Source: Escherichia coli
GTDB lineage: Bacteria > Pseudomonadota > Gammaproteobacteria > Enterobacterales > Enterobacteriaceae
Reading direction: 5' to 3' (one strand)
DNA length: 64,000 bases
Assembly: GCF_003334355.1 (NCBI RefSeq)
Contig: NZ_QOWP01000009.1
How positions within the stretch are numbered: the stretch's first letter is position 1; each line of letters begins with the position of its first letter. The position numbers and the translations under genes are program-made. Positions 8,856-45,325 of the stretch are shown one piece after another. The notes under the pieces are model-generated. The model was given only the letters and a program-made list of their open reading frames with translations, was not told the DNA's origin and made no database searches.

Positions 8856-8934
8856 GCCCACAAATTTGAAGTAGCTCACACTTATACACTTAAGGCATGG
8901 ATGGATATTGCTTCTGATATTGTCCGGCTGGACA

Positions 8935-8963
8935 ATGTTACCGATAACAGTTACCCGTAACAT
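8935..8963 (+). promoter_or_regulatory. two overlapping GntR operator palindromes in the gntKU promoter (ATGTTACCGATAACA / TGTTACCCGTAACAT)
   Basis: Matches the ATGTTA-N4-TAACAT GntR operator consensus, about 30-60 bp upstream of the gntK start; coordinates approximate. Confidence 0.6.
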
Positions 8964-8993
8964 TTTTAATTCTTGTATTGTGGGGGCACCACT

Positions 8994-9521
8994 TTGAGCA
9001 CGACTAACCATGATCACCACATTTACGTCTTGATGGGCGTATCGGGCAGCGGCAAATCTGCGGTCGCCAGTGAAGTGGCGCATCAACTTCATGCCGCGTT
9101 TCTTGATGGCGATTTCCTCCATCCACGGCGCAATATCGAAAAAATGGCGTCTGGCGAACCACTGAATGACGACGATCGCAAACCGTGGTTGCAGGCGCTG
9201 AACGACGCCGCGTTTGCTATGCAGCGCACTAATAAAGTGTCGCTGATCGTCTGTTCTGCATTGAAAAAACACTATCGCGACTTGCTGCGTGAAGGTAATC
9301 CGAATCTCTCTTTCATCTATTTGAAAGGCGATTTTGATGTGATTGAAAGCCGCCTGAAAGCGCGCAAAGGCCATTTCTTTAAAACCCAAATGTTGGTGAC
9401 GCAGTTTGAAACGCTGCAGGAGCCGGGTGCGGACGAAACCGATGTACTGGTGGTGGATATCGATCAACCGCTGGAAGGTGTTGTGGCAAGCACCATTGAG
9501 GTTATTAAAAAAGGCAAATAA
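8994..9521 (+). CDS. gntK: gluconokinase (thermoresistant), 175 aa, TTG start
   Basis: ORF track 8973..9521; the remembered GntK N-terminus MSTTNHDHHIYVLMGVSGSGKS (P-loop) begins at the in-frame TTG at 8994. Confidence 0.92.
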   Translation: MSTTNHDHHIYVLMGVSGSGKSAVASEVAHQLHAAFLDGDFLHPRRNIEKMASGEPLNDDDRKPWLQALNDAAFAMQRTNKVSLIVCSALKKHYRDLLREGNPNLSFIYLKGDFDVIESRLKARKGHFFKTQMLVTQFETLQEPGADETDVLVVDIDQPLEGVVASTIEVIKKGK

Positions 9522-9524
9522 GTA

Positions 9525-10865
9525 GTGACTACATTAACGCTTGTTTTAACAGCAGTAGGGTCTGTTTTACTGCTGCTGTTTTTAGTCATGAAGGCGCGTA
9601 TGCACGCTTTCCTGGCTTTAATGGTGGTGTCCATGGGGGCTGGCCTTTTTTCCGGTATGCCGCTCGATAAAATCGCAGCGACGATGGAAAAAGGGATGGG
9701 AGGCACCCTCGGCTTCCTGGCGGTGGTTGTCGCCCTGGGAGCTATGTTTGGCAAGATCTTACATGAAACCGGCGCAGTCGATCAGATTGCCGTCAAAATG
9801 CTCAAATCCTTCGGTCACAGCCGCGCGCATTATGCCATCGGCCTTGCGGGGCTGGTCTGTGCGCTACCGCTGTTCTTTGAAGTGGCGATTGTTCTGCTGA
9901 TTAGCGTTGCTTTCTCAATGGCGCGCCACACCGGTACGAACCTGGTGAAGCTGGTAATCCCATTATTCGCAGGCGTGGCGGCAGCGGCGGCGTTCCTGGT
10001 GCCAGGGCCAGCGCCAATGCTGCTGGCATCGCAGATGAACGCCGATTTTGGCTGGATGATCCTGATTGGCCTGTGTGCGGCAATTCCGGGAATGATTATT
10101 GCCGGGCCGCTGTGGGGTAATTTCATCAGCCGTTACGTGGAGTTGCATATTCCTGACGACATCAGCGAACCGCATCTCGGCGAAGGCAAAATGCCGTCCT
10201 TCGGATTCAGCCTGTCGCTGATCCTGTTGCCGCTGGTGCTGGTGGGGCTGAAAACCATTGCCGCGCGTTTTGTGCCAGAAGGCTCTACCGCTTACGAATG
10301 GTTCGAGTTTATTGGTCATCCGTTTACCGCGATTCTGGTTGCTTGTCTGGTGGCGATTTATGGCCTGGCGATGCGTCAGGGCATGCCAAAAGACAAAGTG
10401 ATGGAGATTTGCGGTCACGCGCTGCAACCGGCGGGGATCATTCTGCTGGTGATTGGTGCGGGCGGCGTGTTCAAACAGGTGCTGGTTGACTCTGGCGTAG
10501 GTCCGGCACTGGGCGAAGCGTTAACCGGCATGGGCCTGCCGATTGCTATCACCTGCTTCGTGCTGGCCGCTGCAGTGCGCATCATTCAGGGGTCTGCCAC
10601 CGTAGCCTGTTTAACGGCGGTGGGACTGGTGATGCCAGTCATTGAACAACTGAACTACTCTGGTGCGCAAATGGCGGCACTGTCGATTTGTATCGCTGGT
10701 GGTTCGATTGTTGTCAGCCACGTTAACGACGCTGGTTTCTGGTTGTTCGGTAAATTTACCGGCGCGACCGAAGCCGAAACGCTGAAAACCTGGACCATGA
10801 TGGAAACCATTCTCGGCACTGTCGGTGCCATCGTTGGGATGATTGCGTTCCAGCTGTTGAGTTAA
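9525..10865 (+). CDS. gntU: low-affinity gluconate:H+ symporter (GntP family, 446 aa), GTG start
   Basis: ORF track; polytopic membrane protein immediately downstream of gntK. Confidence 0.94.
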   Translation: MTTLTLVLTAVGSVLLLLFLVMKARMHAFLALMVVSMGAGLFSGMPLDKIAATMEKGMGGTLGFLAVVVALGAMFGKILHETGAVDQIAVKMLKSFGHSRAHYAIGLAGLVCALPLFFEVAIVLLISVAFSMARHTGTNLVKLVIPLFAGVAAAAAFLVPGPAPMLLASQMNADFGWMILIGLCAAIPGMIIAGPLWGNFISRYVELHIPDDISEPHLGEGKMPSFGFSLSLILLPLVLVGLKTIAARFVPEGSTAYEWFEFIGHPFTAILVACLVAIYGLAMRQGMPKDKVMEICGHALQPAGIILLVIGAGGVFKQVLVDSGVGPALGEALTGMGLPIAITCFVLAAAVRIIQGSATVACLTAVGLVMPVIEQLNYSGAQMAALSICIAGGSIVVSHVNDAGFWLFGKFTGATEAETLKTWTMMETILGTVGAIVGMIAFQLLS

Positions 10866-10921
10866 GTTTGTTCGCCCGGTAGTTGTGACGCTACCGGGTT
10901 CTTTTCGAAAAACTCTCCTCG

Positions 10922-11515
10922 TTACCCCTTCATCCACATTCGAATGCCGTCGAGGAACATCTGGGTTGCCATCATCACCAGAATCAATCCCATCAGGCGT
11001 TCAAGTGCGTTCACCCCTTTCTCGCCCAGCAGACGTAAAAATAGCGAAGACTGTAGCAGGATGACAAAGGTGCCGCCCCAGGCCAGCAGCAGAGCAATCA
11101 CCAGATGCCCCATCTGATTCGGGTACTGATGAGACAACAACATCAGCGTGGCGAGAATAGTCGGCCCGGCGACTAACGGAATTGCCAACGGCACGATAAA
11201 TGGCTCTTCACCTGCAGGAAGCCCGCTGCTATTTCCTGAAGCGCTGGGGAAAATCATCTTAATGGCGATCAGAAACAGAATGATGCCGCCAGAAATGGAG
11301 ACGGTTTCTGCTCGCAGGCTGAGAAATGCCAGAATTTTCTCACCCGCAAACAGGAACACCAGCATCACCAGGAGAGCAATAAGCAACTCTCGCACCATGA
11401 TTGCCCGCCGTCTTTTCGGTTCAGTATGTTTCAGTACGGACATGAAAATAGGCAGGTTTCCGAGCGGATCCATAATCAGGATCAATAAAACTGCTGCAGA
11501 AATGATTTCATTCAT
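10922..11515 (-). CDS. yhgN: MarC-family inner-membrane protein (197 aa)
   Basis: ORF track; hydrophobic multi-TM sequence; synteny between gntU and asd. Confidence 0.88.
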   Translation of the reverse strand: MNEIISAAVLLILIMDPLGNLPIFMSVLKHTEPKRRRAIMVRELLIALLVMLVFLFAGEKILAFLSLRAETVSISGGIILFLIAIKMIFPSASGNSSGLPAGEEPFIVPLAIPLVAGPTILATLMLLSHQYPNQMGHLVIALLLAWGGTFVILLQSSLFLRLLGEKGVNALERLMGLILVMMATQMFLDGIRMWMKG

Positions 11516-11706
11516 AACTCAAATTCCCTGATAATTGCCGCGGACTTTCTGCGTGCTAACAAAGCAGGATAAGTCGCATTACTGATGGCTTCGCTATCAT
11601 TGATTAATTTCACTTGCGACTTTGGCTGCTTTTTGTATGGTGAAAGATGTGCCAAGAGGAGACCGGCACATTTATACAGCACACATCTTTGCAGGAAAAA
11701 ACGCTT

Positions 11707-12810
11707 ATGAAAAATGTTGGTTTTATCGGCTGGCGCGGTATGGTCGGCTCCGTTCTCATGCAACGCATGGTTGAAGAGCGCGACTTCGACGCCATTCGCC
11801 CTGTCTTCTTTTCTACTTCTCAGCTTGGCCAGGCTGCGCCGTCTTTTGGCGGAACCACTGGCACACTTCAGGATGCCTTTGATCTGGAGGCGCTAAAGGC
11901 CCTCGATATTATTGTGACCTGTCAGGGCGGCGATTATACCAACGAAATCTATCCAAAGCTTCGTGAAAGCGGATGGCAAGGTTACTGGATTGACGCAGCA
12001 TCGTCTCTGCGCATGAAAGATGACGCCATCATCATTCTTGACCCCGTCAATCAGGACGTCATTACCGACGGATTAAATAATGGCATCAGGACTTTTGTTG
12101 GCGGTAACTGTACCGTAAGCCTGATGTTGATGTCGTTGGGTGGTTTATTCGCCAATGATCTTGTTGATTGGGTGTCCGTTGCAACCTACCAGGCCGCTTC
12201 CGGCGGTGGTGCGCGACATATGCGTGAGTTATTAACCCAGATGGGCCATCTGTATGGCCATGTGGCAGATGAACTCGCGACCCCGTCCTCTGCTATTCTC
12301 GATATCGAACGCAAAGTCACAACCTTAACCCGTAGCGGTGAGCTGCCGGTGGATAACTTTGGCGTGCCGCTGGCGGGTAGCCTGATTCCGTGGATCGACA
12401 AACAGCTCGATAACGGTCAGAGCCGCGAAGAGTGGAAAGGGCAGGCGGAAACCAACAAGATCCTCAACACATCTTCCGTAATTCCGGTAGATGGTTTATG
12501 TGTGCGTGTCGGGGCATTGCGCTGCCACAGCCAGGCATTCACTATTAAATTGAAAAAAGATGTGTCTATTCCGACCGTGGAAGAACTGCTGGCTGCGCAC
12601 AATCCGTGGGCGAAAGTCGTTCCGAACGATCGGGAAATCACTATGCGTGAGCTAACCCCAGCTGCCGTTACCGGCACGCTGACCACGCCGGTAGGCCGCC
12701 TGCGTAAGCTGAATATGGGACCAGAGTTCCTGTCAGCCTTTACAGTGGGCGACCAGCTGCTGTGGGGGGCCGCGGAGCCGCTGCGTCGGATGCTTCGTCA
12801 ACTGGCGTAA
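11707..12810 (+). CDS. asd: aspartate-semialdehyde dehydrogenase (367 aa)
   Basis: ORF track 11647..12810; internal ATG at 11707 gives [27 protein letters not shown]. Confidence 0.96.
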
Positions 12811-12828
12811 TCTTTATTCATTAAATCT

Positions 12829-12850
12829 GGGGCGCGATGCCGCCCCTGTT
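12829..12850 (+). terminator. GC hairpin (GGGGCG-CGATGC-CGCCCC) after asd; candidate terminator
   Basis: Read from the sequence; short T-tract only. Confidence 0.4.
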
Positions 12851-13082
12851 AGTGCGTAATACAGGAGTAAGCGCAGATGTTTCATGATTTACCGGGAGTT
12901 AAATAGAGCATTGGCTATTCTTTAAGGGTGGCTGAATACATGAGTATTCACAGCCTTACCTGAAGTGAGGACGACGCAGAGAGGATGCACAGAGTGCTGC
13001 GCCGTTCAGGTCAAAAAAATGTCACAACCAGAAGTCAAAAATCCAATTGGATGGGGTGACACAATAAAACAGGAAGACAAGC

Positions 13083-15269
13083 ATGTCCGATCGTATCGAT
13101 AGAGACGTGATTAACGCGCTAATTGCAGGCCATTTTGCGGATCCTTTTTCCGTACTGGGAATGCATAAAACCACCGCGGGACTGGAAGTCCGTGCCCTTT
13201 TACCCGACGCTACCGATGTGTGGGTGATTGAACCGAAAACCGGGCGCAAACTCGCAAAACTGGAGTGTCTCGACTCACGGGGATTCTTTAGCGGCGTCAT
13301 TCCGCGACGTAAGAATTTTTTCCGCTATCAGTTGGCTGTTGTCTGGCATGGTCAGCAAAACCTGATTGATGATCCTTACCGTTTTGGTCCGCTAATCCAG
13401 GAAATGGATGCCTGGCTATTATCTGAAGGTACTCACCTGCGCCCGTATGAAACCTTAGGCGCGCATGCAGATACTATGGATGGCGTCACAGGTACGCGTT
13501 TCTCTGTCTGGGCTCCAAACGCCCGTCGGGTCTCGGTGGTTGGGCAATTCAACTACTGGGACGGTCGCCGTCACCCGATGCGCCTGCGTAAAGAGAGCGG
13601 CATCTGGGAACTGTTTATCCCTGGGGCGCATAACGGTCAGCTCTATAAATACGAGATGATTGATGCCAATGGCAACTTGCGTCTGAAGTCCGACCCTTAT
13701 GCCTTCGAAGCGCAAATGCGCCCGGAAACCGCGTCTCTTATTTGCGGGCTGCCGGAAAAGGTTGTACAGACTGAAGAGCGCAAAAAAGCGAATCAGTTTG
13801 ATGCGCCAATCTCTATTTATGAAGTTCACCTGGGTTCCTGGCGTCGCCACACCGACAACAATTTCTGGTTGAGCTACCGCGAGCTGGCCGATCAACTGGT
13901 GCCTTATGCTAAATGGATGGGCTTTACCCACCTCGAACTACTGCCCATTAACGAGCATCCCTTCGATGGCAGTTGGGGTTATCAGCCAACCGGCCTGTAT
14001 GCACCAACCCGCCGTTTTGGTACTCGCGACGACTTCCGTTATTTCATTGATGCCGCACACGCAGCTGGTCTGAACGTGATTCTCGACTGGGTGCCAGGCC
14101 ACTTCCCGACTGATGACTTTGCGCTTGCCGAATTTGATGGCACGAACTTGTATGAACACAGCGATCCGCGTGAAGGCTATCATCAGGACTGGAACACGCT
14201 GATCTACAACTATGGTCGCCGTGAAGTCAGTAACTTCCTCGTCGGTAACGCGCTTTACTGGATTGAACGTTTTGGTATTGATGCGCTGCGCGTCGATGCG
14301 GTGGCGTCAATGATTTATCGCGACTACAGCCGTAAAGAGGGGGAGTGGATCCCGAACGAATTTGGCGGGCGCGAGAATCTTGAAGCGATTGAATTCTTGC
14401 GTAATACCAACCGTATTCTTGGTGAGCAGGTTTCCGGTGCGGTGACAATGGCTGAGGAGTCTACCGATTTCCCTGGCGTTTCTCGTCCGCAGGATATGGG
14501 CGGTCTGGGCTTCTGGTACAAGTGGAACCTCGGCTGGATGCATGACACCCTGGACTACATGAAGCTCGACCCGGTTTATCGTCAGTATCATCACGATAAA
14601 CTGACCTTCGGGATTCTCTACAACTACACTGAAAACTTCGTCCTGCCGTTGTCGCATGATGAAGTGGTCCACGGTAAAAAATCGATTCTCGACCGCATGC
14701 CGGGCGACGCATGGCAGAAATTCGCGAACCTGCGCGCCTACTATGGCTGGATGTGGGCATTCCCGGGCAAGAAACTACTGTTCATGGGTAACGAATTTGC
14801 CCAGGGCCGCGAGTGGAACCATGACGCCAGCCTCGACTGGCATCTGTTGGAAGGCGGCGATAACTGGCACCACGGTGTCCAGCGTCTGGTGCGCGATCTG
14901 AACCTCACCTACCGCCACCATAAAGCAATGCATGAACTGGATTTTGACCCGTACGGCTTTGAATGGCTGGTGGTGGATGACAAAGAACGCTCGGTGCTGA
15001 TCTTTGTGCGTCGCGATAAAGAGGGTAACGAAATCATCGTTGCCAGTAACTTTACGCCGGTACCGCGTCATGATTATCGCTTCGGCATTAATCAGCCGGG
15101 CAAATGGCGTGAAATCCTCAATACCGATTCCATGCACTATCACGGCAGTAATGCAGGCAATGGCGGCACGGTACACAGCGATGAGATTGCCAGCCACGGT
15201 CGTCAGCATTCACTAAGCCTGACGCTACCACCGCTGGCCACTATCTGGCTGGTTCGGGAGGCAGAATGA
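13083..15269 (+). CDS. glgB: 1,4-alpha-glucan branching enzyme (728 aa)
   Basis: ORF track; [28 protein letters not shown]...; first gene of glgBXCAP. Confidence 0.98.
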
Positions 15270-17239
15270 CACAACTCGCCATTGGCAAACCCGCTCCCCT
15301 CGGCGCGCATTACGACGGTCAGGGCGTCAACTTCACACTTTTCTCCGTTCATGCCGAGCGGGTAGAACTGTGTGTCTTTGACGCCAATGGCCAGGAACAT
15401 CGCTATGACTTGCCAGGGCACAGTGGCGACATTTGGCACGGTTATCTGCCGGATGCGCGCCCGGGTTTGCGTTATGGTTATCGCGTTCATGGCCCCTGGC
15501 AACCCGCCGAGGGGCATCGCTTTAACCCGGCGAAGTTGTTGATTGATCCTTGCGCGCGGCAAATTGACGGGGAGTTTAAAGATAACCCGCTGCTGCACGC
15601 CGGTCATAATGAACCTGACTATCGCGACAACGCCGCCATTGCGCCGAAATGCGTAGTGGTGGTTGATCACTATGACTGGGAAGATGATGCCCCGCCGCGC
15701 ACGCCGTGGGGCAGCACCATCATTTATGAAGCCCATGTCAAAGGATTAACGTACTTGCACCCGGAGATCCCGGTCGAGATCCGTGGCACTTATAAAGCCC
15801 TCGGGCATCCGGTGATGATCAACTATTTGAAACAATTGGGCATTACCGCGCTGGAACTGCTGCCAGTGACGCAGTTTGCCAGTGAACCACGTCTGCAACG
15901 CATGGGGCTAAGTAACTACTGGGGTTACAACCCGGTGGCGATGTTTGCGCTGCATCCGGCGTATGCCTGCTCGCCAGAAACGGCGCTGGATGAGTTTCGC
16001 GATGCAATCAAAGCACTGCATAAAGCGGGTATCGAAGTCATTCTTGATATCGTGCTCAACCATAGTGCGGAACTGGACCTCGACGGCCCGTTATTCTCGC
16101 TGCGTGGGATCGATAACCGTAGCTATTATTGGATAAGAGAAGACGGCGATTATCACAACTGGACCGGTTGCGGCAACACGCTCAATTTGAGTCATCCGGC
16201 GGTGGTGGATTATGCCAGCGCCTGCCTGCGTTATTGGGTAGAAACCTGCCACGTCGATGGTTTCCGCTTTGATCTGGCGGCAGTCATGGGCCGTACGCCA
16301 GAGTTCCGTCAGGATGCGCCGTTGTTTACCGCTATCCAGAACTGCCCGGTGCTCTCGCAGGTGAAGTTAATTGCTGAACCGTGGGATATCGCTCCTGGTG
16401 GTTATCAGGTGGGAAATTTCCCGCCGCTGTTTGCCGAGTGGAACGATCATTTCCGCGATGCTGCCCGTCGTTTCTGGCTGCATTATGATTTGCCTCTGGG
16501 GGCGTTTGCCGGGCGTTTTGCTGCCTCCAGCGATGTTTTTAAACGTAATGGTCGTCTGCCGAGTGCCGCGATTAATCTCGTCACCGCACATGACGGTTTT
16601 ACGCTTCGCGACTGCGTTTGCTTCAACCATAAACACAATGAAGCAAACGGAGAAGAAAATCGCGACGGGACCAACAACAATTACAGTAACAATCATGGTA
16701 AAGAAGGGTTAGGCGGTACTCTTGATCTGGTTGAACGGCGGCGCGACAGCATTCATGCCCTGTTAACAACGTTGTTGCTCTCCCAGGGCACGCCGATGTT
16801 ACTGGCCGGTGACGAACATGGTCACAGCCAGCATGGCAATAACAATGCCTACTGTCAGGATAACCAATTAACCTGGTTGGACTGGTCGCAGGCAAGCAGT
16901 GGTTTAACCGCATTTACCGCCGCGTTAATCCATCTGCGCAAGCGTATTCCCGCTTTGGTGGAGAATCGCTGGTGGGAAGAAGGCGACGGCAATGTCCGTT
17001 GGCTAAATCGATATGCTCAACCTTTAAGCACGGATGAGTGGCAAAACGGGCCGAAACAGCTGCAAATTCTGCTCTCGGATCGCTTTTTGATCGCAATTAA
17101 CGCCACGCTTGAGGTAACAGAGATTGTTTTACCTGCTGGGGAGTGGCACGCCATTCCCCCATTCGCTGGAGAGGATAACCCAGTGATTACGGCTGTCTGG
17201 CAGGGACCTGCACACGGATTGTGTGTGTTCCAGAGATGA
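15266..17239 (+). CDS. glgX: glycogen debranching enzyme (657 aa)
   Basis: ORF track; start overlaps the glgB stop by 4 nt; GH13 motifs. Confidence 0.98.
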
Positions 17240-17256
17240 TAAAAAAGGAGTTAGTC

Positions 17257-18552
17257 ATGGTTAGTTTAGAGAAGAACGATCACTTAATGTTGGCGCGCCA
17301 GCTGCCATTGAAATCTGTTGCCCTGATACTGGCGGGAGGACGTGGTACCCGCCTGAAGGATTTAACCAATAAGCGAGCAAAACCGGCCGTACACTTCGGC
17401 GGTAAGTTCCGCATTATCGACTTTGCGCTGTCTAACTGCATCAACTCCGGGATCCGTCGTATGGGCGTGATCACCCAGTACCAGTCCCACACTCTGGTGC
17501 AGCACATTCAGCGCGGCTGGTCATTCTTTAATGAAGAAATGAACGAGTTTGTCGATCTGCTGCCAGCGCAGCAGAGAATGAAAGGGGAAAACTGGTATCG
17601 CGGCACCGCAGATGCGGTCACCCAAAACCTCGATATTATCCGCCGTTATAAAGCGGAATACGTGGTGATCCTGGCGGGCGACCATATCTACAAGCAAGAT
17701 TACTCGCGTATGCTTATCGATCACGTCGAAAAAGGCGCACGTTGCACCGTTGCTTGTATGCCAGTACCGATTGAAGAAGCCTCCGCATTTGGCGTTATGG
17801 CGGTTGATGAGAACGATAAAATTATCGAATTCGTTGAAAAACCTGCTAACCCACCGTCAATGCCGAACGATCCGAGCAAATCTCTGGCGAGTATGGGTAT
17901 CTACGTCTTTGACGCCGACTATCTGTATGAACTGCTGGAAGAAGACGATCGTGATGAGAACTCCAGCCACGACTTTGGCAAAGATTTGATTCCCAAGATC
18001 ACCGAAGCCGGTCTGGCCTATGCGCACCCGTTCCCGCTCTCTTGCGTACAATCCGACCCGGATGCCGAGCCGTACTGGCGCGATGTGGGTACGCTGGAAG
18101 CTTACTGGAAAGCGAACCTCGATCTGGCCTCTGTGGTGCCGGAACTGGATATGTACGATCGCAATTGGCCAATTCGCACCTACAATGAATCATTACCGCC
18201 AGCGAAATTCGTGCAGGATCGCTCCGGTAGCCACGGGATGACCCTTAACTCACTGGTATCCGGCGGCTGTGTGATCTCCGGTTCGGTGGTGGTGCAGTCC
18301 GTTCTGTTCTCGCGCGTTCGCGTGAATTCATTCTGCAACATTGATTCCGCCGTATTGTTACCGGAAGTATGGGTAGGTCGCTCGTGCCGTCTGCGCCGCT
18401 GCGTCATCGATCGTGCTTGTGTTATTCCGGAAGGCATGGTGATTGGTGAAAACGCAGAGGAAGATGCACGTCGTTTCTATCGTTCAGAAGAAGGCATCGT
18501 GCTGGTAACGCGCGAAATGCTACGGAAGTTAGGGCATAAACAGGAGCGATAA
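17257..18552 (+). CDS. glgC: glucose-1-phosphate adenylyltransferase (431 aa)
   Basis: ORF track 17221..18552; ATG at 17257 ([33 protein letters not shown]) preceded by AAAAAGGAG. Confidence 0.97.
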
Positions 18553-19985
18553 TGCAGGTTTTACATGTATGTTCAGAGATGTTCCCGCTGCTTAAAACCG
18601 GCGGTCTGGCTGATGTTATTGGGGCATTACCCGCAGCACAAATCGCAGACGGCGTTGACGCTCGCGTACTGTTGCCTGCATTTCCCGATATTCGCCGTGG
18701 CGTGACCGATGCGCAAGTAGTATCCCGTCGTGATACCTTCGCCGGACATATCACGCTGTTGTTCGGTCATTACAACGGGGTTGGCATATACCTGATTGAC
18801 GCGCCGCATCTCTATGATCGTCCGGGAAGCCCGTATCACGATACCAACTTATTTGCCTATACCGACAACGTATTGCGTTTTGCGCTGCTGGGGTGGGTTG
18901 GGGCAGAAATGGCCAGCGGGCTTGACCCATTCTGGCGTCCTGATGTGGTGCATGCGCACGACTGGCATGCAGGCCTTGCGCCTGCGTATCTGGCGGCGCG
19001 CGGGCGTCCGGCGAAGTCGGTGTTTACTGTGCACAACTTGGCCTATCAAGGCATGTTTTATGCACATCACATGAATGACATCCAATTGCCATGGTCATTC
19101 TTTAATATTCATGGGCTGGAATTCAACGGACAAATCTCTTTCCTGAAGGCCGGTCTGTACTATGCCGATCACATTACGGCGGTCAGTCCAACCTACGCTC
19201 GCGAGATCACCGAACCGCAGTTTGCCTACGGTATGGAAGGTCTGTTGCAACAGCGTCACCGTGAAGGGCGTCTTTCCGGCGTACTGAACGGCGTGGACGA
19301 GAAAATCTGGAGTCCTGAGACGGACTTACTGTTGGCCTCGCGTTACACCCGCGATACGTTGGAAGATAAAGCGGAAAATAAGCGCCAGTTACAAATCGCA
19401 ATGGGGCTTAAGGTTGACGATAAAGTGCCGCTTTTTGCAGTGGTGAGCCGTCTGACCAGCCAGAAAGGTCTCGACCTGGTGCTGGAAGCCTTACCGGGCC
19501 TTCTGGAGCAGGGCGGGCAGCTGGCGCTACTCGGCGCGGGCGATCCGGTGCTGCAGGAAGGTTTCCTTGCGGCGGCAGCGGAATACCCCGGTCAGGTGGG
19601 CGTTCAGATTGGCTATCACGAAGCATTTTCGCATCGCATTATGGGCGGCGCGGACGTCATTCTGGTGCCCAGCCGTTTTGAACCGTGCGGCTTAACGCAA
19701 CTTTATGGATTGAAGTACGGTACGCTGCCGTTAGTGCGGCGCACCGGTGGGCTTGCTGATACGGTTTCTGACTGTTCTCTTGAGAACCTTGCAGATGGCG
19801 TCGCCAGTGGGTTTGTCTTTGAAGATAGTAATGCCTGGTCGCTGTTACGGGCTATTCGGCGTGCTTTTGTACTGTGGTCCCGTCCTTCACTGTGGCGGTT
19901 TGTGCAACGTCAGGCTATGGCAATGGATTTTAGCTGGCAGGTCGCGGCGAAGTCGTACCGTGAGCTTTACTATCGCTTGAAATAG
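18552..19985 (+). CDS. glgA: glycogen synthase (477 aa)
   Basis: ORF track; [22 protein letters not shown]...; start overlaps the glgC stop (TAATG). Confidence 0.98.
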
Positions 19986-22451
<2,466 letters not shown>

Positions 22452-22465
22452 TTTCACTAATAAAT

Positions 22466-22497
22466 AGAACGGGGCCAAAGGGTCCCGTTTTTTTCGC
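22466..22497 (+). terminator. intrinsic terminator of the glg operon (AACGGGGCCAAAGGGTCCCGTT + T7)
   Basis: Hairpin plus run of 7 T immediately after the glgP stop. Confidence 0.7.
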
Positions 22498-22566
22498 CAT
22501 CATTTCGGAAAAGTGTCCAGAAGGGGCAAGGGGACTCGGGGAGTATAATTTCGCCATTCAGAAAGA

Positions 22567-22983
22567 ATGGAAAGAATAATGCAAAACAGAAAATGGATTT
22601 TGACCTCGCTGGTAATGACTTTTTTCGGCATCCCCATTCTGGCGCAGTTTTTGGCGGCGGTTATTGCCATGCTGGGTGTCGGACTTGCCGGTATTATTGA
22701 AGTTTGTAATATCTTTATCACGCCAACAATTTACCTTCTGCTCAACGTCTTTATGCTGACGCTGGGGGCGATAATAATATTTTTCTCTGGTCGCGTGTGG
22801 GCCGGTGATAGCGCGCCAGAAAACAGAGAAATAGCCGTCTGGCGGCAATGCTTTTTTCTCTTACCCGCGCTATTAACCCTGGTTGGCTGGATAATCACGC
22901 TACATCTGGCAGATTATCAATTTCGCCAGATGGGAGCTGGTTGGTTGGCAAACCTTATGCTTCCCTGGTTGGCGTTTTTTTAG
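22567..22983 (+). CDS. hypothetical small polytopic membrane protein (138 aa, about 4 predicted TM segments)
   Basis: ORF track; strongly hydrophobic helices (ILTSLVMTFFGIPILAQFLAAVIAMLGVGLAGII...); ends at TAG 22981-22983; not recognised as a named family. Confidence 0.5.
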   Translation: MERIMQNRKWILTSLVMTFFGIPILAQFLAAVIAMLGVGLAGIIEVCNIFITPTIYLLLNVFMLTLGAIIIFFSGRVWAGDSAPENREIAVWRQCFFLLPALLTLVGWIITLHLADYQFRQMGAGWLANLMLPWLAFF

Positions 22984-23012
22984 TCTCATTAGTGGGTGGT
23001 GAGTACTGGTGG

Positions 23013-24083
23013 ATGGTCATTATTCCCGTTGGGGCGCATATCAGTTTTTCGCTGGGATACGCCTGGCCGACCAGATATCCTTTATCCGGCACGTCCGGAC
23101 TACGTTGCCGTAACTTACTCCTGTTTCTACTTCTCTTACTTGGTATTGTCGCCGGGTATCAGGCCCATTTATATAAGCAGCAAAATCCTGGTGTCGGTGT
23201 ACGCGAAAATATTGATATCTGGGCCTGGCGACCCGATAAACTCAATAATCGACTGACGCCGCTGCGTGGCAAACCGCAAATTCAGTTTAGGCAAAACTGG
23301 CCGCGAATCGATGGCGCCACGGCTGCGTACCCAATTTATGCTTCTGCATTTTATGCATTAAGTGTAATACCAGAGGATTTTCACGTTTGGGATTATCTGG
23401 AAAACTCTCGTACGCCAGAAGCATATAACAAAATCGTTAAGGGCGATGCTGATATTATTTTCGTGGCGCAACCTTCCGGTGGGCAAAAAAAACGTGCAAA
23501 GGAATCTGGTGTCACTTTGCTGTACACCCCCTTTGCCCGTGAAGCATTCGTTTTCATCGTCAATGCGGATAATCCGGTTAATTCCCTGACTGAACAACAG
23601 GTGCGTGACATTTTCAGTGGTGCAATTACCAATTGGCGTGCTGTTGGCGGTAACGATCAGGAGATCCAGACCTGGCAGCGCCCGGAAGACTCTGGCAGCC
23701 AGACAGTGATGCAATCACAGGTCATGAAAAATGTCCGCATGATCTCGCCGCAGGAAACGAAAGTGGCAAGCGTGATGGAGGGAATGATTAAAGTCGTTGC
23801 CGAATACCGTAATACAAACAACGCAATAGGCTATACCTTCCGCTATTACGCGACGCAAATGAATGCTGATAAAAATATAAAATTGCTAGCGATTAACGGT
23901 ATTACACCGACGGCGGAAAACATTCGCAACGGCAAATATGCGTACATCGTCGATGCATTTATGGTGACGAGAGAAAATACAACGTCAGAAACACAAAAAC
24001 TGGTCGAATGGTTTTTAACGCCGCAGGGGCAGAGTCTGGTAGAAGATGTGGGATATGTGCCGCTGTATCCAACAATGGAATAA
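23013..24083 (+). CDS. PstS-family (phosphate-binding-protein-like, PBP_like_2) periplasmic binding protein with N-terminal hydrophobic anchor; start uncertain (ATG 23013 or GTG 22992)
   Basis: ORF track 22848..24083 (its first ~48 codons overlap the upstream membrane ORF out of frame and are discounted). Motifs DGATAAYPIYASAFYAL, RPEDSGSQ, AIGYTFRYYA, LLAINGITPTAENIRNG parallel PstS GAGATFPAPVY / RADGSGTS / AIGYVEYAYA / PTEENF. Confidence 0.7.
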   Translation: MVIIPVGAHISFSLGYAWPTRYPLSGTSGLRCRNLLLFLLLLLGIVAGYQAHLYKQQNPGVGVRENIDIWAWRPDKLNNRLTPLRGKPQIQFRQNWPRIDGATAAYPIYASAFYALSVIPEDFHVWDYLENSRTPEAYNKIVKGDADIIFVAQPSGGQKKRAKESGVTLLYTPFAREAFVFIVNADNPVNSLTEQQVRDIFSGAITNWRAVGGNDQEIQTWQRPEDSGSQTVMQSQVMKNVRMISPQETKVASVMEGMIKVVAEYRNTNNAIGYTFRYYATQMNADKNIKLLAINGITPTAENIRNGKYAYIVDAFMVTRENTTSETQKLVEWFLTPQGQSLVEDVGYVPLYPTME

Positions 24084-24108
24084 CGCTCGAGAGAAAGGAA
24101 TCAGCGAG

Positions 24109-25101
24109 ATGAATAAATTCACCGGTGTTTTACTATTAGGCACGGCGTTACTGGCGGGATGTGTCGACCGGGAAGGGTACTATAACAGCGTTAGGGAAGA
24201 AGAGAGCCATGGACTGACGTCTCTGCGGGGGCAACCTGCATTACGTTACAGCGATGATTGGTCAAGATGGCCGAGAGTGTACGGCGCTACAGCCTTATAC
24301 CCGCTGTATGCCTCCGCGTATTATAAATTAGTACCCGAGCCAAAAGATAAGGATCGAACCTCGCTGGCCTGGCAGGCGTATGGTTTGCAGCAAACCCGAA
24401 CAGCTGAAGCCTACGATAGTCTGATTAAAGGTTCCGCGACGGTTATTTTTGTTGCACAACCGTCGGAAGGACAGAAAAAACGTGCAGAAGAAGCGGGTGT
24501 TAAACTGAAATATACCGCTTTCGCCCGCGAAGCCTTTGTCTTTATCGTTGATATTAATAACCCGGTAAATTCTCTCTCTGAGCACCAGGTTAAAGATATT
24601 TTTAGCGGCAAAACTAGCCGCTGGAATAAAGTAGGTGGTAGTGACGAACATATAAAAGTCTGGCAGCGCCCTGAAGATTCTGGAAGCCAAACGATTATGA
24701 AGGGGTTGGTTATGCAAGACACCCCAATGCTGCCAGCTAAAAAATCCACTGTGATTGATCTTATGGGCGGTTTAATTACTGAAGTTGCCGACTATCAAAA
24801 CACGCCATCTTCCATTGGGTACACCTTCCACTATTACGTCACTCGTATGAATGACAATATGCTCAAAATGCGCAAGCAGATTAAACTTTTGGCTATAAAT
24901 GGCGTTGCGCCTACCGAGGAAAATATCCGCAACGGCACTTATCCATACATTGTGGATGCCTATATGGTGACGCGTGAAAATCCCACGCCGGAAACGCAGA
25001 AATTTGTTGACTGGTTTATAAGTCAGCAGGGGCAACAGTTGGTAGAGGATGTGGGGTATGTGCCGCTGTATGAAGCATCCCCCGAATCATCAGGACAATA
25101 A
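24109..25101 (+). CDS. PstS-family binding-protein paralog, predicted lipoprotein (330 aa)
   Basis: ORF track 24046..25101; ATG at 24109 gives MNKFTGVLLLGTALLAGC (lipobox LAGC); roughly 60% identical by eye to the upstream paralog across the mature domain. Confidence 0.75.
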   Translation: MNKFTGVLLLGTALLAGCVDREGYYNSVREEESHGLTSLRGQPALRYSDDWSRWPRVYGATALYPLYASAYYKLVPEPKDKDRTSLAWQAYGLQQTRTAEAYDSLIKGSATVIFVAQPSEGQKKRAEEAGVKLKYTAFAREAFVFIVDINNPVNSLSEHQVKDIFSGKTSRWNKVGGSDEHIKVWQRPEDSGSQTIMKGLVMQDTPMLPAKKSTVIDLMGGLITEVADYQNTPSSIGYTFHYYVTRMNDNMLKMRKQIKLLAINGVAPTEENIRNGTYPYIVDAYMVTRENPTPETQKFVDWFISQQGQQLVEDVGYVPLYEASPESSGQ

Positions 25102-25388
25102 TGATGAATATAATCAGACTTTATATTTATCCGTTATTTCTCGGCTTTGTTATTGTGCCGTTGTTGGTGTGGCCGATGGTGGTTGCGCTGGCTGCTTGTA
25201 TTATCACGCTGAGTTTTCTGGGGGAAATGCTGTTCTCAATCCCGCTCATGATCAGGCGTATTTCACTTCTGCAATTACAACTTTGGTTATCGGCTGAATA
25301 TGCGCTTTTCTTCTGTGTAATGTGTTGCGTTGGTTGGCAATTTACTCGTAGAACTCAATCTGAATTGAAAAGCAGGCTCCATTGTTGA
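25101..25388 (+). CDS. hypothetical small membrane protein (95 aa); may be the N-terminal part of a gene interrupted by an in-frame stop
   Basis: ORF track; ATG overlaps the stop of the preceding gene (TAATG); hydrophobic helices. Confidence 0.4.
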   Translation: MMNIIRLYIYPLFLGFVIVPLLVWPMVVALAACIITLSFLGEMLFSIPLMIRRISLLQLQLWLSAEYALFFCVMCCVGWQFTRRTQSELKSRLHC

Positions 25389-25703
25389 TTGGTATTCGCA
25401 CCGATCTATTTATGGTTGATCCTCTGGAATATCATTTTTTACATCGCGCCAGCGAAAATTGCGTTGCTGGAAAGTATCCGCAATTTCTTTCTGCTTGTTG
25501 TCTGGCTACCCCTGAATTTTTCGCCATTTTGGCCTCAGCCGTGGACGGATTTTATCGGTCCAATAAGCGCACAGCTTGGTTTTGCGTTGGGATATTATTG
25601 CCAGTGGTGCAGCAAAAATAGATGCCAGATACGGAAGTTGAGTGAGTGGGGAACGTGCTTAAGTTTTGTTACGTTGGGTATGATGGCGTGGGCTTTGCGG
25701 TAA
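25389..25703 (+). CDS. hypothetical small membrane protein (104 aa); same frame as 25101..25388, separated from it by a single stop codon
   Basis: ORF track; both ORFs are in frame 0 and contiguous, so one stop codon splits a roughly 199-codon membrane-protein reading frame. Confidence 0.4.
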   Translation: MVFAPIYLWLILWNIIFYIAPAKIALLESIRNFFLLVVWLPLNFSPFWPQPWTDFIGPISAQLGFALGYYCQWCSKNRCQIRKLSEWGTCLSFVTLGMMAWALR

Positions 25704-25754
25704 TTCCCTGAATCAAAAAGTAGGTCAGATTGTTGACAACGTGGCGCTTTGTTC

Positions 25755-25860
25755 ATGCCTGATGCGGCGCGAACGCCTTATCAGGCCTACAAAATCATGC
25801 AAATTCAATATATTGTATAAACAACGTAGGCCAGATAAGCGTAGCGCATCTGGCAGTTTT
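25755..25860. repeat. REP/BIME-type palindromic units (GCCTGATGCGGCGCGAACGCCTTATCAGGCCTAC; GTAGGCCAGATAAGCGTAGCGCATCTGGC)
   Basis: Typical enterobacterial REP sequences read from the intergenic region downstream of convergent genes; coordinates approximate. Confidence 0.6.
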
Positions 25861-25918
25861 TTGGTTTGTCATCAGTCTCAGGTCAGATTGAAATCTGACC
25901 TGGCCACCTTACATTAAA

Positions 25919-27424
25919 TCACGACGCCAGCGACAGCTTCTGCTGCGTATACTCCACCAGCCACTGACTCACACGAGATTGTTGATCCGCATTTAGCCAC
26001 ATGCCTTGTTTTGTGCGACGCCACAGGGCGTCGTCGGCGCGGCGGACCCATTCGTGATCCACCAGGTATTTCAGCTCCGCTTCGTAGAACTCATGACCGA
26101 AATCTTCCCCGAGATCGCTTACCGTTCCCGCATTGCCGAGCAGCAGCTCGCTGTTGCTGCCGTAAGTGCGAGCGTAATGACGCGCCAGCGATTCAGTCAG
26201 GAACGGATAGCGGCGGCGCAGGCGAGCGGCATAATCGTCGCGGTCGCCTTCAATGGCGCCACCCGGTAGCACACTCTCTTTCGTCCATGCCGGGCCAATA
26301 CCCTGATAATACGGCGTTAGTTTTTCCAGCGCATGTTCCGCCAGTTTTCGGTAGGTGGTCAGCTTACCGCCGAATACCGACAGCAGCGGTGCTTTGCCAT
26401 TTTCATCATGAATATCAAGGGTGTAATCACGGGTAATAGCCTGCGGCGAGTCGGACTCATCATCACACAGCGGACGCACACCGGAGTAGGTCCAGACGAT
26501 ATCGTCACGGCTTAACTGCTTTTTAAAGTGCGTGTTATACACATTCAGCAGGTAATTGATTTCACTCTCTTCAATCTTCACCGCTTTCGGATCGCCTTTG
26601 TACTCGACATCGGTAGTGCCGATGATGGAAAACTCGTCCATCCACGGGATCACGAACACAATACGTTTATCTTCGTTTTGCAGAATGTAGGCTTGCTTCT
26701 GGGTATGCACGCGCGGCACCACAATATGGCTGCCTTTGATCAGGCGAATGCCATAAGGCGAAGGCAGATGCATCCCGTCGTCGAAGAACTGTTTCACCCA
26801 CGGGCCGGTGGCGTTAACCAAGCCGCGCGCTTGCCAGCTATATTTTTTGCCGGTATCGATATCTTCCGCTTCCACAATCCACAGGCCGTTTTCGCGGCGA
26901 GCAGAGGTGGCGCGAGTCCGAGTAAGCACTTCGCCGCCTTTACGCACCACCATCTGGGCGTTGGCGAGTACCAGACGGGCGTCGTCTACCCAACAGTCAG
27001 AATATTCGAATCCGCGCTTAATTTCCGGTTTTAACACTGAATTTGCGCCAAAACGCAAACCAGTTGATCCCGGCAAGCTGGTGCGTTTACCCAGATGATC
27101 GTACATAAACAGACCAATGCGAATCATCCACGCCGGGCGCAGATGCGGACGATGTGGCAGGCGAAAACGCATCGGGAAGGCGATATGCGGGGCCATTTTC
27201 AGCAGCACTTCACGTTCAGCCAGCGCCTCGCTGACCAGGCGGAATTCATAGTGCTCAAGGTAGCGCAGGCCACCGTGAATGAGTTTTGAACTGGCGGAAG
27301 AGGTCGCGCAAGCGAGATCCTGCGCCTCCAGCATCAGCACGGATAAACCGCGTCCAGCGGCGTCTGCCGCGATACCAGCACCATTGATGCCGCCCCCTAT
27401 CACAATCAGATCTTTGGTTTCCAT
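25919..27424 (-). CDS. glpD: aerobic sn-glycerol-3-phosphate dehydrogenase (501 aa)
   Basis: ORF track 25919..27439; ATG at 27424 gives METKDLIVIGGGINGAGIAADAAGRGLSV (FAD-binding fold). Confidence 0.97.
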   Translation of the reverse strand: METKDLIVIGGGINGAGIAADAAGRGLSVLMLEAQDLACATSSASSKLIHGGLRYLEHYEFRLVSEALAEREVLLKMAPHIAFPMRFRLPHRPHLRPAWMIRIGLFMYDHLGKRTSLPGSTGLRFGANSVLKPEIKRGFEYSDCWVDDARLVLANAQMVVRKGGEVLTRTRATSARRENGLWIVEAEDIDTGKKYSWQARGLVNATGPWVKQFFDDGMHLPSPYGIRLIKGSHIVVPRVHTQKQAYILQNEDKRIVFVIPWMDEFSIIGTTDVEYKGDPKAVKIEESEINYLLNVYNTHFKKQLSRDDIVWTYSGVRPLCDDESDSPQAITRDYTLDIHDENGKAPLLSVFGGKLTTYRKLAEHALEKLTPYYQGIGPAWTKESVLPGGAIEGDRDDYAARLRRRYPFLTESLARHYARTYGSNSELLLGNAGTVSDLGEDFGHEFYEAELKYLVDHEWVRRADDALWRRTKQGMWLNADQQSRVSQWLVEYTQQKLSLAS

Positions 27425-29590: not shown

Positions 29591-31170
29591 TCCTGCAATG
29601 CTTCCCAGGTCAGACCAAAACGCGCCAGGTATTTGCGTAGCCGATCCGCGTCATTGACGCTGGCTTTGCCCTGGCGCGAAACATCAAAAAGCTGTCGTCC
29701 GGCAGCAGAAAGCGACTTTGCCTGGCGGCAGATAGCGATAACGTGTTCCAGTTGCATACGGTCGAAGAGATCGATGTTTTCTGCCTCTGCGCCCAGCAGT
29801 TGCGTAAGCGCGGAGGGACGGCTCTCCTGCCAGTTATAGCGCAGACGGTTTATCTCATCTTCAACCACGTCCAGAGTGATGCGTCCGCTAGTGGCAAAGG
29901 TTGCCATCCGCGTGACGCTGGCAGAAAGCTCGCGAAAGTTACCGCGCCATGTCGCCTGAGGAGATGTTGCAAAGGCCAGCCAGGCACGCCGCGCTTCGGT
30001 GTTAAAACGCACGCTGTCGCCGGTGAGTGAGGCGTGGCGCTCCACTTCATAATCCAGGTTAGGTTCAATATCTTCCTGGCGCTGGCGTAGCCCCGGCAGG
30101 GTGAAGGTCCAGAGATTGATCCGCGCGTACAGATCTTCGCGGAATTTGCCTTCGGCAACCAGCTGGCGCAAATCGCGCACCGTTCCGGCGATAAGCTGAA
30201 AATCACTGCTCACCTGGCGATCGCTGCCAAACGGGTAAAAGGTTTTCTCTTCAATGGCTTTTAGCAGCATTGCTTGTTCGTCTGCGCCCAGTTCGCCAAT
30301 CTCATCAAGAAACAACATTCCGCCGTTGGCGCTGCGTAATAAACCTTCACGAGATTCCCGCGCCCCGGTAAACGCGCCTTTTACATGACCAAACAGCGTC
30401 GACATGGCGGTATCGCCGCGCAGGGTGGCGCAGTTCACTTCCACAAACGCGCCGCTAAACTGACGCCGCGCCTGTTTTAACTCGAAGATGCGTCGCGCCA
30501 GAAATGACTTGCCCGCGCCGGTTGGACCGTTAAGCAGAATCGGCGCGCGGGATTTGATCGCCACTTTTTCGATCTGCTCAATCATGCGGTTGAAGTGGGG
30601 GTTACGCGTGGCAATGCCGGACTTAAGAAAATCAAGCGTTTGCTGGCGTTCCTCGGCAAAGCGGCTGGCGATGGCGTTATAACGGCTTAAATCGAGATCG
30701 ATAATCGTCACTTCACCTGCGCCGCGCGGCTGTTCTTTTTTGCGCGGAGGTGAAGATTGTATCAGCCGGGCGGGCAGGTAACGCGCTTCCGCCAGCAGAA
30801 ACCAGCAAATCTGCGCGACGTGGGTGCCGGTGGTAATGTGAATTAAATAGTCTTCTTTTTCTGGCTGAAACTCGTAACCACGGGCGAAATCATGCAGGCA
30901 AGCGTAAACCTCTTCGAAATCCCACGGGTTATGCAGTTCAATCTCAACGCTCACCACTTCTGTTTCTGGCGAAACGCTGGCGATATCGCGTTTAAGCGTT
31001 TCAAATAGCGAGCGCGAGCGGGCGTCATGCAATAATTCCAGTCGATCGATGACCAACGATTCTTGCTGGCATAAACAGAGTGTCGGAAGCCATTTCGACC
31101 AGCGCTGACTGCCGCGCCCGGCATAATCCAGCACGGTACCGACAAAGCCAAAAGCCACTGTTTTACGCAT
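29572..31170 (-). CDS. rtcR: sigma-54-dependent transcriptional activator of rtcBA (532 aa)
   Basis: ORF track; AAA+ sigma-54 activator motifs ([14 protein letters not shown]); divergent from rtcB; 3' end overlaps glpR by 19 nt. Confidence 0.97.
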
Positions 31171-39367: not shown

Positions 39368-41452
39368 ATGGAAAGCAAACGTCTGGATAATGCCGCGCTG
39401 GCGGCGGGGATTAGCCCCAATTACATCAATGCCCACGGTAAACCGCAGTCGATTAGCGCCGAAACCAAACGGCGTTTGCTTGACGCGATGCATCAACGTA
39501 CCGCCACGAAAGTGGCGGTAACGCCAGTCCCGAATGTCATGGTTTATACCAGCGGCAAAAAAATGCCGATGGTGGTGGAGGGCAGCGGCGAATATAGCTG
39601 GCTGCTGACCACCGAAGAAGGAACACAGTACAAAGGCCATGTAACGGGGGGCAAAGCGTTCAATCTACCGACGAAGCTGCCGGAAGGTTATCACACGCTG
39701 ACACTCACCCAGGACGACCAGCGCGCGCATTGCCGGGTGATTGTCGCCCCGAAGCGCTGTTACGAACCGCAGGCGTTGCTGAATAAACAAAAGCTGTGGG
39801 GTGCCTGCGTCCAGCTTTATACGCTGCGATCGGAAAAAAACTGGGGTATTGGGGATTTTGGCGATCTCAAAGCGATGCTGGTGGATGTGGCAAAACGTGG
39901 CGGGTCGTTCATCGGCCTGAACCCGATTCATGCGCTCTATCCGGCAAATCCGGAGAGTGCCAGCCCATACAGCCCGTCTTCTCGCCGTTGGCTGAATGTG
40001 ATTTATATCGACGTTAACGCCGTTGAAGATTTCCATCTTAGCGAAGAGGCTCAGGCCTGGTGGCAGTTGCCGACCACGCAACAGACGCTGCAACAGGCGC
40101 GCGATGCCGACTGGGTCGATTACTCCACGGTTACCGCCCTAAAAATGACAGCATTACGAATGGCGTGGAAAGGTTTCGCGCAACGTGATGATGAGCAGAT
40201 GACCGCGTTTCGCCAGTTTGTTGCAGATCAAGGCGACAGCCTGTTCTGGCAGGCAGCCTTTGATGCGCTACATGCCCAGCAAGTGAAAGAGGACGAAATG
40301 CGCTGGGGCTGGCCTGCATGGCCAGAGATGTATCAGAACGTGGATTCACCAGAAGTGCGTCAGTTCTGCGAAGAACATCGTGATGACGTCGATTTTTATC
40401 TCTGGTTGCAGTGGCTGGCTTACAGCCAGTTTGCCGCCTGCTGGGAGATAAGCCAGGGCTATGAAATGCCGATTGGCTTGTATCGTGATCTGGCGGTTGG
40501 CGTAGCGGAAGGTGGGGCGGAAACCTGGTGCGACCGTGAACTGTATTGCCTGAAAGCGTCGGTTGGCGCGCCGCCGGATATCCTCGGCCCGTTGGGGCAG
40601 AACTGGGGATTACCGCCAATGGACCCGCATATCATCACCGCGCGTGCCTATGAACCGTTTATCGAGCTGTTGCGTGCCAATATGCAAAACTGCGGCGCAT
40701 TACGAATTGACCATGTGATGTCGATGCTGCGTTTGTGGTGGATACCGTATGGCGAGACGGCAGATCAGGGCGCGTATGTTCACTATCCGGTGGATGATCT
40801 GCTCTCGATTCTGGCACTCGAAAGTAAACGTCATCGCTGTATGGTGATTGGTGAAGATCTCGGTACCGTACCGGTAGAGATTGTCGGTAAGCTGCGCAGC
40901 AGCGGTGTGTACTCCTACAAAGTGCTCTATTTCGAAAACGACCACGAGAAGACGTTCCGTGCACCGAAAGCGTATCCGGAGCAGTCGATGGCGGTTGCGG
41001 CGACACATGACCTGCCTACGCTACGCGGTTACTGGGAGAGCGGGGATCTAACGCTGGGCAAAACCCTGGGGCTGTATCCGGATGAAGTGGTACTGCGCGG
41101 TCTGTATCAGGATCGCGAACTGGCGAAGCAAGGGCTGCTGGATGCACTGCATAAATATGGTTGTCTGCCAAAACGTGCCGGGCATAAGGCATCGTTGATG
41201 TCGATGACGCCGACGCTGAACCGTGGTTTGCAGCGCTACATTGCCGACAGTAACAGTGCTCTGTTAGGACTACAGCCGGAAGACTGGCTGGATATGGCCG
41301 AACCGGTGAATATTCCTGGCACCAGTTACCAGTATAAAAACTGGCGACGCAAGCTTTCCGCAACGCTTGAGACGATGTTTGCCGATGATGGCGTGAACAA
41401 GTTGCTGAAGGATTTGGACAGACGGCGCAGAGCTGCAGCGAAGAAGAAGTAG
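39368..41452 (+). CDS. malQ: 4-alpha-glucanotransferase / amylomaltase (694 aa)
   Basis: ORF track; MESKRLDNAALAAGISPNYINAHGKPQ... Confidence 0.98.
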   Translation: MESKRLDNAALAAGISPNYINAHGKPQSISAETKRRLLDAMHQRTATKVAVTPVPNVMVYTSGKKMPMVVEGSGEYSWLLTTEEGTQYKGHVTGGKAFNLPTKLPEGYHTLTLTQDDQRAHCRVIVAPKRCYEPQALLNKQKLWGACVQLYTLRSEKNWGIGDFGDLKAMLVDVAKRGGSFIGLNPIHALYPANPESASPYSPSSRRWLNVIYIDVNAVEDFHLSEEAQAWWQLPTTQQTLQQARDADWVDYSTVTALKMTALRMAWKGFAQRDDEQMTAFRQFVADQGDSLFWQAAFDALHAQQVKEDEMRWGWPAWPEMYQNVDSPEVRQFCEEHRDDVDFYLWLQWLAYSQFAACWEISQGYEMPIGLYRDLAVGVAEGGAETWCDRELYCLKASVGAPPDILGPLGQNWGLPPMDPHIITARAYEPFIELLRANMQNCGALRIDHVMSMLRLWWIPYGETADQGAYVHYPVDDLLSILALESKRHRCMVIGEDLGTVPVEIVGKLRSSGVYSYKVLYFENDHEKTFRAPKAYPEQSMAVAATHDLPTLRGYWESGDLTLGKTLGLYPDEVVLRGLYQDRELAKQGLLDALHKYGCLPKRAGHKASLMSMTPTLNRGLQRYIADSNSALLGLQPEDWLDMAEPVNIPGTSYQYKNWRRKLSATLETMFADDGVNKLLKDLDRRRRAAAKKK

Positions 41453-41464
41453 AGTGCGGTTGAT

Positions 41465-41485
41465 GCCGGATGCGATGCATCCGGC
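41465..41485. terminator. hairpin GCCGGATGC-GATG-CATCCGGC between convergent malQ and gntT
   Basis: Perfect inverted repeat read from the sequence. Confidence 0.5.
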
Positions 41486-41496
41486 AGTCAGTGTTA

Positions 41497-42813: not shown

Positions 42814-42970
42814 GATTTACCTGGCCTTTCATTTGTTATGGGTAACGTCAATTTTCTGACGACAAACTCTAATTATCCCAATCGGGAACAGAGATATTGC
42901 GGCACCACGACTGATACCCACTAAAACTAATTATTGTAGTCAGATGTCAGGAGTATGTTTGGTACCCATG

Positions 42971-42989
42971 TGAATGATACGGGTAACAT
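42971..42989 (-). promoter_or_regulatory. GntR operator in the gntT promoter/leader (ATGTTACCCGTATCATTCA on the gntT-sense strand)
   Basis: Same palindrome family as the gntK operators; lies about 160 bp upstream of the gntT start; coordinates approximate. Confidence 0.6.
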
Positions 42990-43117
42990 CTGGCGTTTGA
43001 GAATCACCAGAGCGGGGTAAATTTAAATTATGAGAGGTTGGTCATATTATCGCGGGGAAACGAAGGGAGGGATTTGCCAAAGCAATGCTGCGCCAACGTC
43101 TGGCACATGTTCAATGT

Positions 43118-43173
<56 letters not shown>

Positions 43174-43749: not shown

Positions 43750-43807
43750 AGTAATGGCCTAATAGTTGACTATTTTAGTTGGTTATAATACGCCCATCAT
43801 CGAGGCT

Positions 43808-45299
<1,492 letters not shown>

Positions 45300-45325
45300 G
45301 CACTTTTGAATGGCGAGACAGAACT

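Follow-up and report, generated by a model that had tools for sequence, protein, structure and literature searches.

The closest described relatives of the gene analysed here are the ybl142 genes of E. coli B, HS, ATCC 8739 and other strains, which share with it the position between glgP and glpD, the operon and the length of the reading frame. RefSeq gives the corresponding 603 nt as a single unbroken CDS encoding a 200-aa 'hypothetical protein', called Ybl142 in some sources (WP_000981057.1 in E. coli B-DolR, WP_000981056.1 in HS and WP_000981061.1 in O157:H7 PV15-279), and the orthologues in MS1718 and AZ162 are also single intact CDSs of 199-201 aa. The yzgL pseudogene of K-12 occupies the same chromosomal locus and presents the same theme of decay. 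Whereas the Ybl142 reference proteins are intact, the gene studied here has a TGA at codon 96 and a Val to Ile change at 25404. We put the probability at roughly 90% that a recent, strain-level TGG to TGA nonsense mutation has made this copy of ybl142 a pseudogene, in an operon that in this strain also carries a frameshift.

The window, by which we mean the whole 64,000-nucleotide stretch of DNA that was analysed, is E. coli chromosome containing the glgP to glpD region and is 99.6-99.96% identical to HS. Over the aligned positions 5015-45707, identity to HS was 99.96% up to 22886 and 99.61% beyond 22963. The genes run in the order glgB-glgX-glgC-glgA-glgP, three accessory genes, the convergent glpD and glpE-glpG, and the features of the accessory cluster and its surroundings are collected in Table 1. 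In other strains the product of gene 1 is 502 aa long and combines a membrane domain at its N-terminus with a PstS-like (PBP_like_2) domain at its C-terminus. The start of ybl142, the third accessory gene, overlaps the stop of gene 2 (TAATGATG), which argues that ybl142 is the translationally coupled last gene of the operon. The repeats in the spacer downstream of ybl142 scored 34.6 bits against Rfam ES036 (gathering threshold 37.6) and 32 bits against naRNA4. Elsewhere in the window, positions 40202-45626 (malQ-gntT-nfuA-gntX-bioH) held about 70 of the 95 differences from HS, compared with only 6 in 5015-22886, and are probably a recombination tract. Relative to HS there is also an in-frame insertion of 6 bp (GCGAGC) at 31008-31013, which maps into rtcR.

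Table 1. Features of the accessory gene cluster between glgP and glpD and of its flanks (window coordinates).
Feature	Coordinates	Strand	Evidence
Gene 1, full-length form of the K-12 yzgL remnant, frameshifted	22576..24083	+	Aligned with B, O157 and HS; translated in three frames
Gene 2, intact 330-aa PstS-family (PBP_like_2) protein with lipoprotein-type signal (LLAGC)	24109..25101	+	
AGGA Shine-Dalgarno of ybl142	25092..25095	+	Direct sequence reading
Disrupted ybl142-type gene (199/200-codon polytopic membrane protein, Escherichia only)	25101..25703	+	Colinear with intact CDSs
Premature stop TGA; G>A transition at 25388 in the Trp96 codon TGG	25386..25388	+	Orthologue alignment
C-terminal half, presumably untranslated or at most weakly reinitiated	25389..25703	+	TTG 25389 is the Leu97 codon
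Palindromic repeats of REP type between ybl142 and the convergent glpD	25719..25833	.	Sub-threshold Rfam matches
glpD, convergent downstream neighbour	25919..27424	-	

The reading frame of ybl142 runs on the + strand from the ATG at 25101 to the TAA at 25701-25703, a length of 200 codons, with the TGA as its sole internal stop. The ORF listing divides it into 25101..25388 (95 aa) and 25389..25703 (104 aa), which lie in one frame and directly abut, just as the original prediction had described them with a single TGA at about 25386-25388. That both halves are hydrophobic, a further part of the prediction, was borne out by GRAVY values of +1.13 for the N-terminal half and +0.72 for the C-terminal half. 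About 6-7 helices were predicted over the whole frame using hydropathy and a low-confidence AlphaFold model. In the nucleotide alignment the first codon of ybl142 was AAG in MS1718 and was absent in AZ162, which makes the ATG at 25104, the second in the frame, the probable conserved initiator. Initiation there would give an intact protein of 199 aa, in agreement with the roughly 199 codons first proposed.

Three readings of the split frame had been offered at the outset, namely a recent nonsense mutation, stop-codon readthrough or recoding, and two tightly packed small genes. Alignment with orthologues, the check that had been suggested, showed TGG in place of the stop and revealed no two-gene arrangement, so that the nonsense reading stands, the recoding reading falls and the two-gene reading is not supported. 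Compared base by base, the window gene was colinear with the CDSs of WP_000981057.1 (B) and WP_000981056.1 (HS) without indels and 99.5-99.7% identical to them, with two mismatches against HS and three against B within the 603 nt. At 25388 the window has A in place of G, and TGG (Trp96) becomes TGA. At 25404 A in place of G changes Val to Ile, and among the compared sequences this A was found only in the window and in the contig ERR4578542_9. At 25608 the window and HS have T and B has C. The three G:C to A:T changes relative to E. coli B were considered as a mutagen-type cluster, and this idea was dropped because the T at 25608 is common to HS and is ordinary polymorphism. Codon 96 was TGG in all five aligned E. 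coli alleles (B, O157:H7, MS1718, AZ162 and HS), and Trp96 did not vary among the 13 full-length homologues aligned (E. coli, E. albertii, E. marmotae and Escherichia sp.). As expected for a pseudogene, the stop aligns with a sense codon in the orthologues, and the rest of the frame is colinear with theirs. As other E. coli have one annotated CDS over the same 603 nt, the ORF pair is one gene and not a chance arrangement.

The family to which this gene belongs was surveyed by searching 1.84 billion cluster representatives with a sequence profile. The search returned only 43 hits, all of them Escherichia-type sequences or fragments together with one distant metagenomic sequence, P0130, and apart from fragments the matches amounted to one full-length Escherichia cluster and P0130. 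This most distant homologue found (184 aa) is one continuous ORF with Gly at the site equivalent to Trp96. The window gene was placed in the Ybl142 family by full-length similarity and by the conserved synteny glgP-pbp-pbp-ybl142-glpD. Numerous database entries of the family were fragments or looked frameshifted (e.g. P0084, P0095, P0124, P0128). These fragmentary entries suggest frequent disruption of ybl142 across Escherichia, and partial contigs contribute to them too.

Selection on the gene was assessed between divergent E. coli allelic groups (dS 0.24-0.86), where dN/dS was 0.20-0.28 for the whole of ybl142, 0.20-0.39 for codons 1-95 and 0.20-0.24 from codon 97 to the end. Purifying selection therefore acts on both halves of ybl142 in one frame, and the intact frame is a real gene that codes for protein across the position of the stop. 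The constraint was moderate, dN/dS of the neighbouring glpD being 0.02-0.05. The three-gene cluster was also unusually divergent and mosaic among E. coli when the window was compared with the loci L001-L004. Between E. coli alleles dS was 0.24-0.86 for gene 3, 0.11-0.39 for gene 1 and 0.09-0.23 for the adjacent glpD, and gene 2 was nearly identical in B and O157:H7 (dS 0.005), whereas genes 1 and 3 differed between them. In AZ162 the place of gene 2 is taken by a 255-aa protein that is annotated as hypothetical and not as PstS family.

The idea of two small genes can also take the form of a split protein, in which the 95-aa N-terminal fragment and a 104-aa C-terminal fragment reinitiated at TTG 25389 assemble and function together. 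Split polytopic membrane proteins sometimes reassemble, the TGA directly adjoins the TTG in a geometry that can permit termination-reinitiation, and the break lies between helices, just past the charged loop 83-92. However, a two-gene organisation was found in no orthologue, the distant P0130 included, every orthologue having a single ORF. The 'start' at TTG 25389 arises from the mechanical ORF rule, which takes the first ATG, GTG or TTG after a stop, and the Leu97-Val98-Phe99 residues beside Trp96 are invariant too, which identifies this TTG as an internal Leu codon. Reading of the second half found no in-frame ATG before the vicinity of the C-terminus and no well-placed Shine-Dalgarno; the only purine-rich motif upstream of the TTG is the AGG at 25374-25376, which is 12 nt away and beyond the usual optimal spacing. 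BLASTP of the N-terminal half against the C-terminal half gave E = 17, and with the halves non-homologous the protein is not a duplicated-domain protein able to work as a dimer of its halves; an internal duplication of that kind was rejected on the same result. We therefore consider two functional half-genes very unlikely.

Decoding of the UGA, either by near-cognate tRNA-Trp or as selenocysteine, would leave the gene partly or fully functional. UGA is the leakiest E. coli stop codon and its misreading by tRNA-Trp inserts Trp, which here would restore exactly the ancestral residue, and the TGA allele persists in several public assemblies. Against this reading, the stop is not conserved: the E. 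coli orthologues have TGG, and the stop was absent from all orthologues examined, which does not fit programmed readthrough. The residue aligned with the UGA is Trp (Gly in P0130) and not the Cys or Sec expected of a selenoprotein. The original prediction had also called for inspection for a SECIS-like hairpin downstream of the UGA, and none was found by Rfam search or folding. When positions 24900-25950 were scanned against Rfam at E <= 10, neither a SECIS nor another cis-element was detected within ybl142 or downstream of it beyond the REP-type repeats of the spacer, the only match inside the gene being an unrelated weak antisense match at the 5' end. The 65 nt beginning at the UGA folded no more stably than shuffled versions of the sequence (MFE -10.9 kcal/mol, z = -0.21). 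The base following the UGA is U, which published work on the fourth-base effect in E. coli describes as an efficient termination context, and readthrough would be expected only at the usual background, in percent or trace amounts. Functional decoding of the stop is thus highly improbable, and a nonsense mutation is again the better account of the TGA.

To place the TGA allele in the E. coli population we searched complete genomes and public assemblies. A 59-nt probe bearing the TGA matched exactly in none of 5,426 complete E. coli genomes, and with one mismatch (58 of 59 bases) in 226 of them; the best whole-gene matches among the complete genomes were 99.7% identical. In public assemblies the intact protein occurred on at least 1,000 contigs and the exact 95-aa product on 15. 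The TGA was confirmed in three of these 15 contigs, and five others that we examined stop just before the codon. These five short metagenome contigs (L009-L013), which end within 3 nt before the TGA, were considered as TGA/TGG mixtures and rejected as uninformative, because look-up by exact protein sequence selects contigs that end exactly there. The stop allele is thus derived and rare in the E. coli population.

The TGA differs by a single base from the nearest complete genomes, as a sequencing or assembly error in the window also would, and this is not specific support for an error. The contig ERR4578542_9 (82 kb, reported in 5 samples) matched the window at every one of the 6,288 nt compared (100% identity), the TGA included. 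Two further assemblies carried the TGA on other haplotypes: in the SRR33405499 contig it was the sole difference from HS, and the SRR36641858 contig was E. coli B-like with 3 mismatches in 4,100 nt, the TGA among them. An independent identical assembly and two others with the TGA show that the allele is genuine, and an error in the sequence is effectively refuted.

The TGA was found on three flanking haplotypes, B-like, HS-like and the window's own. The site pairs 24974/25388 and 25388/25608 both failed the four-gamete test, all four allele combinations being present, which indicates that the TGA arose more than once or was moved by short-tract recombination. With E. coli sequenced in such great numbers, a recurrent single transition in a dispensable gene is unremarkable.

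Other lesions were evident in the cluster, both in the window and in related strains. In the window, the frame of gene 1 is shifted by the loss of 1 bp from a run of G at about 22969-22971, and in the identical contig ERR4578542_9 the gene caller splits gene 1 into 134 + 356 aa. HS gene 1 is annotated as frameshifted and has an 86-bp deletion nearly coincident with the frameshift site of the window. Annotated IS1 copies lie in gene 1 and gene 3 of BKQ37E. Positions 1-27 of the SRR36641858 contig (at about window 24289, inside gene 2) are the reverse complement of a sequence that we take to be the IS1 terminal inverted repeat, so the operon of this TGA-carrying strain, too, seems to contain an inserted IS1. 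In K-12 the segment corresponding to window 22800-25644 (2.84 kb) is missing as one deletion with about 8 nt of alignment overlap at the junction, and what is left is the yzgL remnant, 222 nt from the 5' end of gene 1, joined to the final 60 nt of ybl142. Of 5,426 complete E. coli genomes, only 2,052 retained 80% or more of gene 3. The cluster between glgP and glpD is accessory and repeatedly lost. With TGG in the orthologues, a rare derived allele and other lesions in the operon, a recent nonsense mutation was the one of the early proposals that the evidence strongly favoured.

In the lineage of the strain of the window, on a chromosome close to that of HS, a single G to A change at 25388 turned the conserved Trp96 codon from TGG into TGA. 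Translation would then end after 95 (or 94) residues and yield a three-helix N-terminal fragment; the last four or so helices of Ybl142 would not be made, leaving the gene a pseudogene. Such a loss fits the general decay of the operon, as seen in the gene 1 frameshift and in the independent deletions and IS1 insertions of relatives. We infer that the function of ybl142 has been lost and that the loss was neutral or tolerated. The N-terminal fragment may retain residual function, and low-level UGA readthrough or reinitiation may occur. Downstream of the stop there was one substitution only (25404 G>A), which is too few to demonstrate relaxed constraint.

The three TGA haplotypes, together with the independent IS1, frameshift and deletion lesions in relatives, could also reflect positive selection for repeated loss of an envelope system peculiar to Escherichia, for instance to escape a phage or colicin that uses it, and leaky decoding of the UGA by tRNA-Trp might still yield a little wild-type protein. 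The presence of TGA on three haplotypes might hint at selection instead of drift, and the relatives with operon lesions appear to belong mainly to phylogroup A. We regard selected inactivation as unlikely, and a nonsense mutation that was neutral or tolerated is the reading that we retain.

Several searches addressed the function of intact Ybl142. Pfam held no family for it, the only match being DUF6768 with an i-E of 1.1, and NCBIfam held no family above cutoff, with a 19-bit match to a septation-inhibitor model whose cutoff is 120. PADLOC and PHROGs held no family for Ybl142, a PDB profile search returned no relative, and nothing was found in the literature under the name 'ybl142'. AlphaFold2 run on a 13-sequence alignment produced a model with a pLDDT of 45.8 and a pTM of 0.28, values too poor for the model to be used in a fold search. 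Judged only by operon structure and hydrophobicity, Ybl142 may best be viewed as a small, polytopic protein of the inner membrane that partners the two upstream PstS-like proteins in an Escherichia-specific envelope system.

For annotation, these data mean that 25101-25703 should be described as one pseudogene and neither as two small genes nor as a recoding site. The locus adds one more example of the ongoing decay of the accessory cluster between glgP and glpD in E. coli, and the ybl142 nonsense allele is an ordinary instance of a well-known kind. Intact ybl142 represents a tiny, genus-restricted and repeatedly lost family, and it could be a candidate in work on envelope genes that are dispensable or counter-selected. 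Like bacterial selenoprotein genes such as fdhF, this ybl142 copy has an in-frame UGA within a conserved frame; unlike those genes, which have a SECIS hairpin, it shows no SECIS-like hairpin, its orthologues have Trp at the site and the UGA is limited to rare alleles. The comparison with K-12 differs in the manner of the loss: K-12 lost 2.84 kb at once, whereas the strain of the window retains all three genes of the cluster, two of them broken by point lesions.
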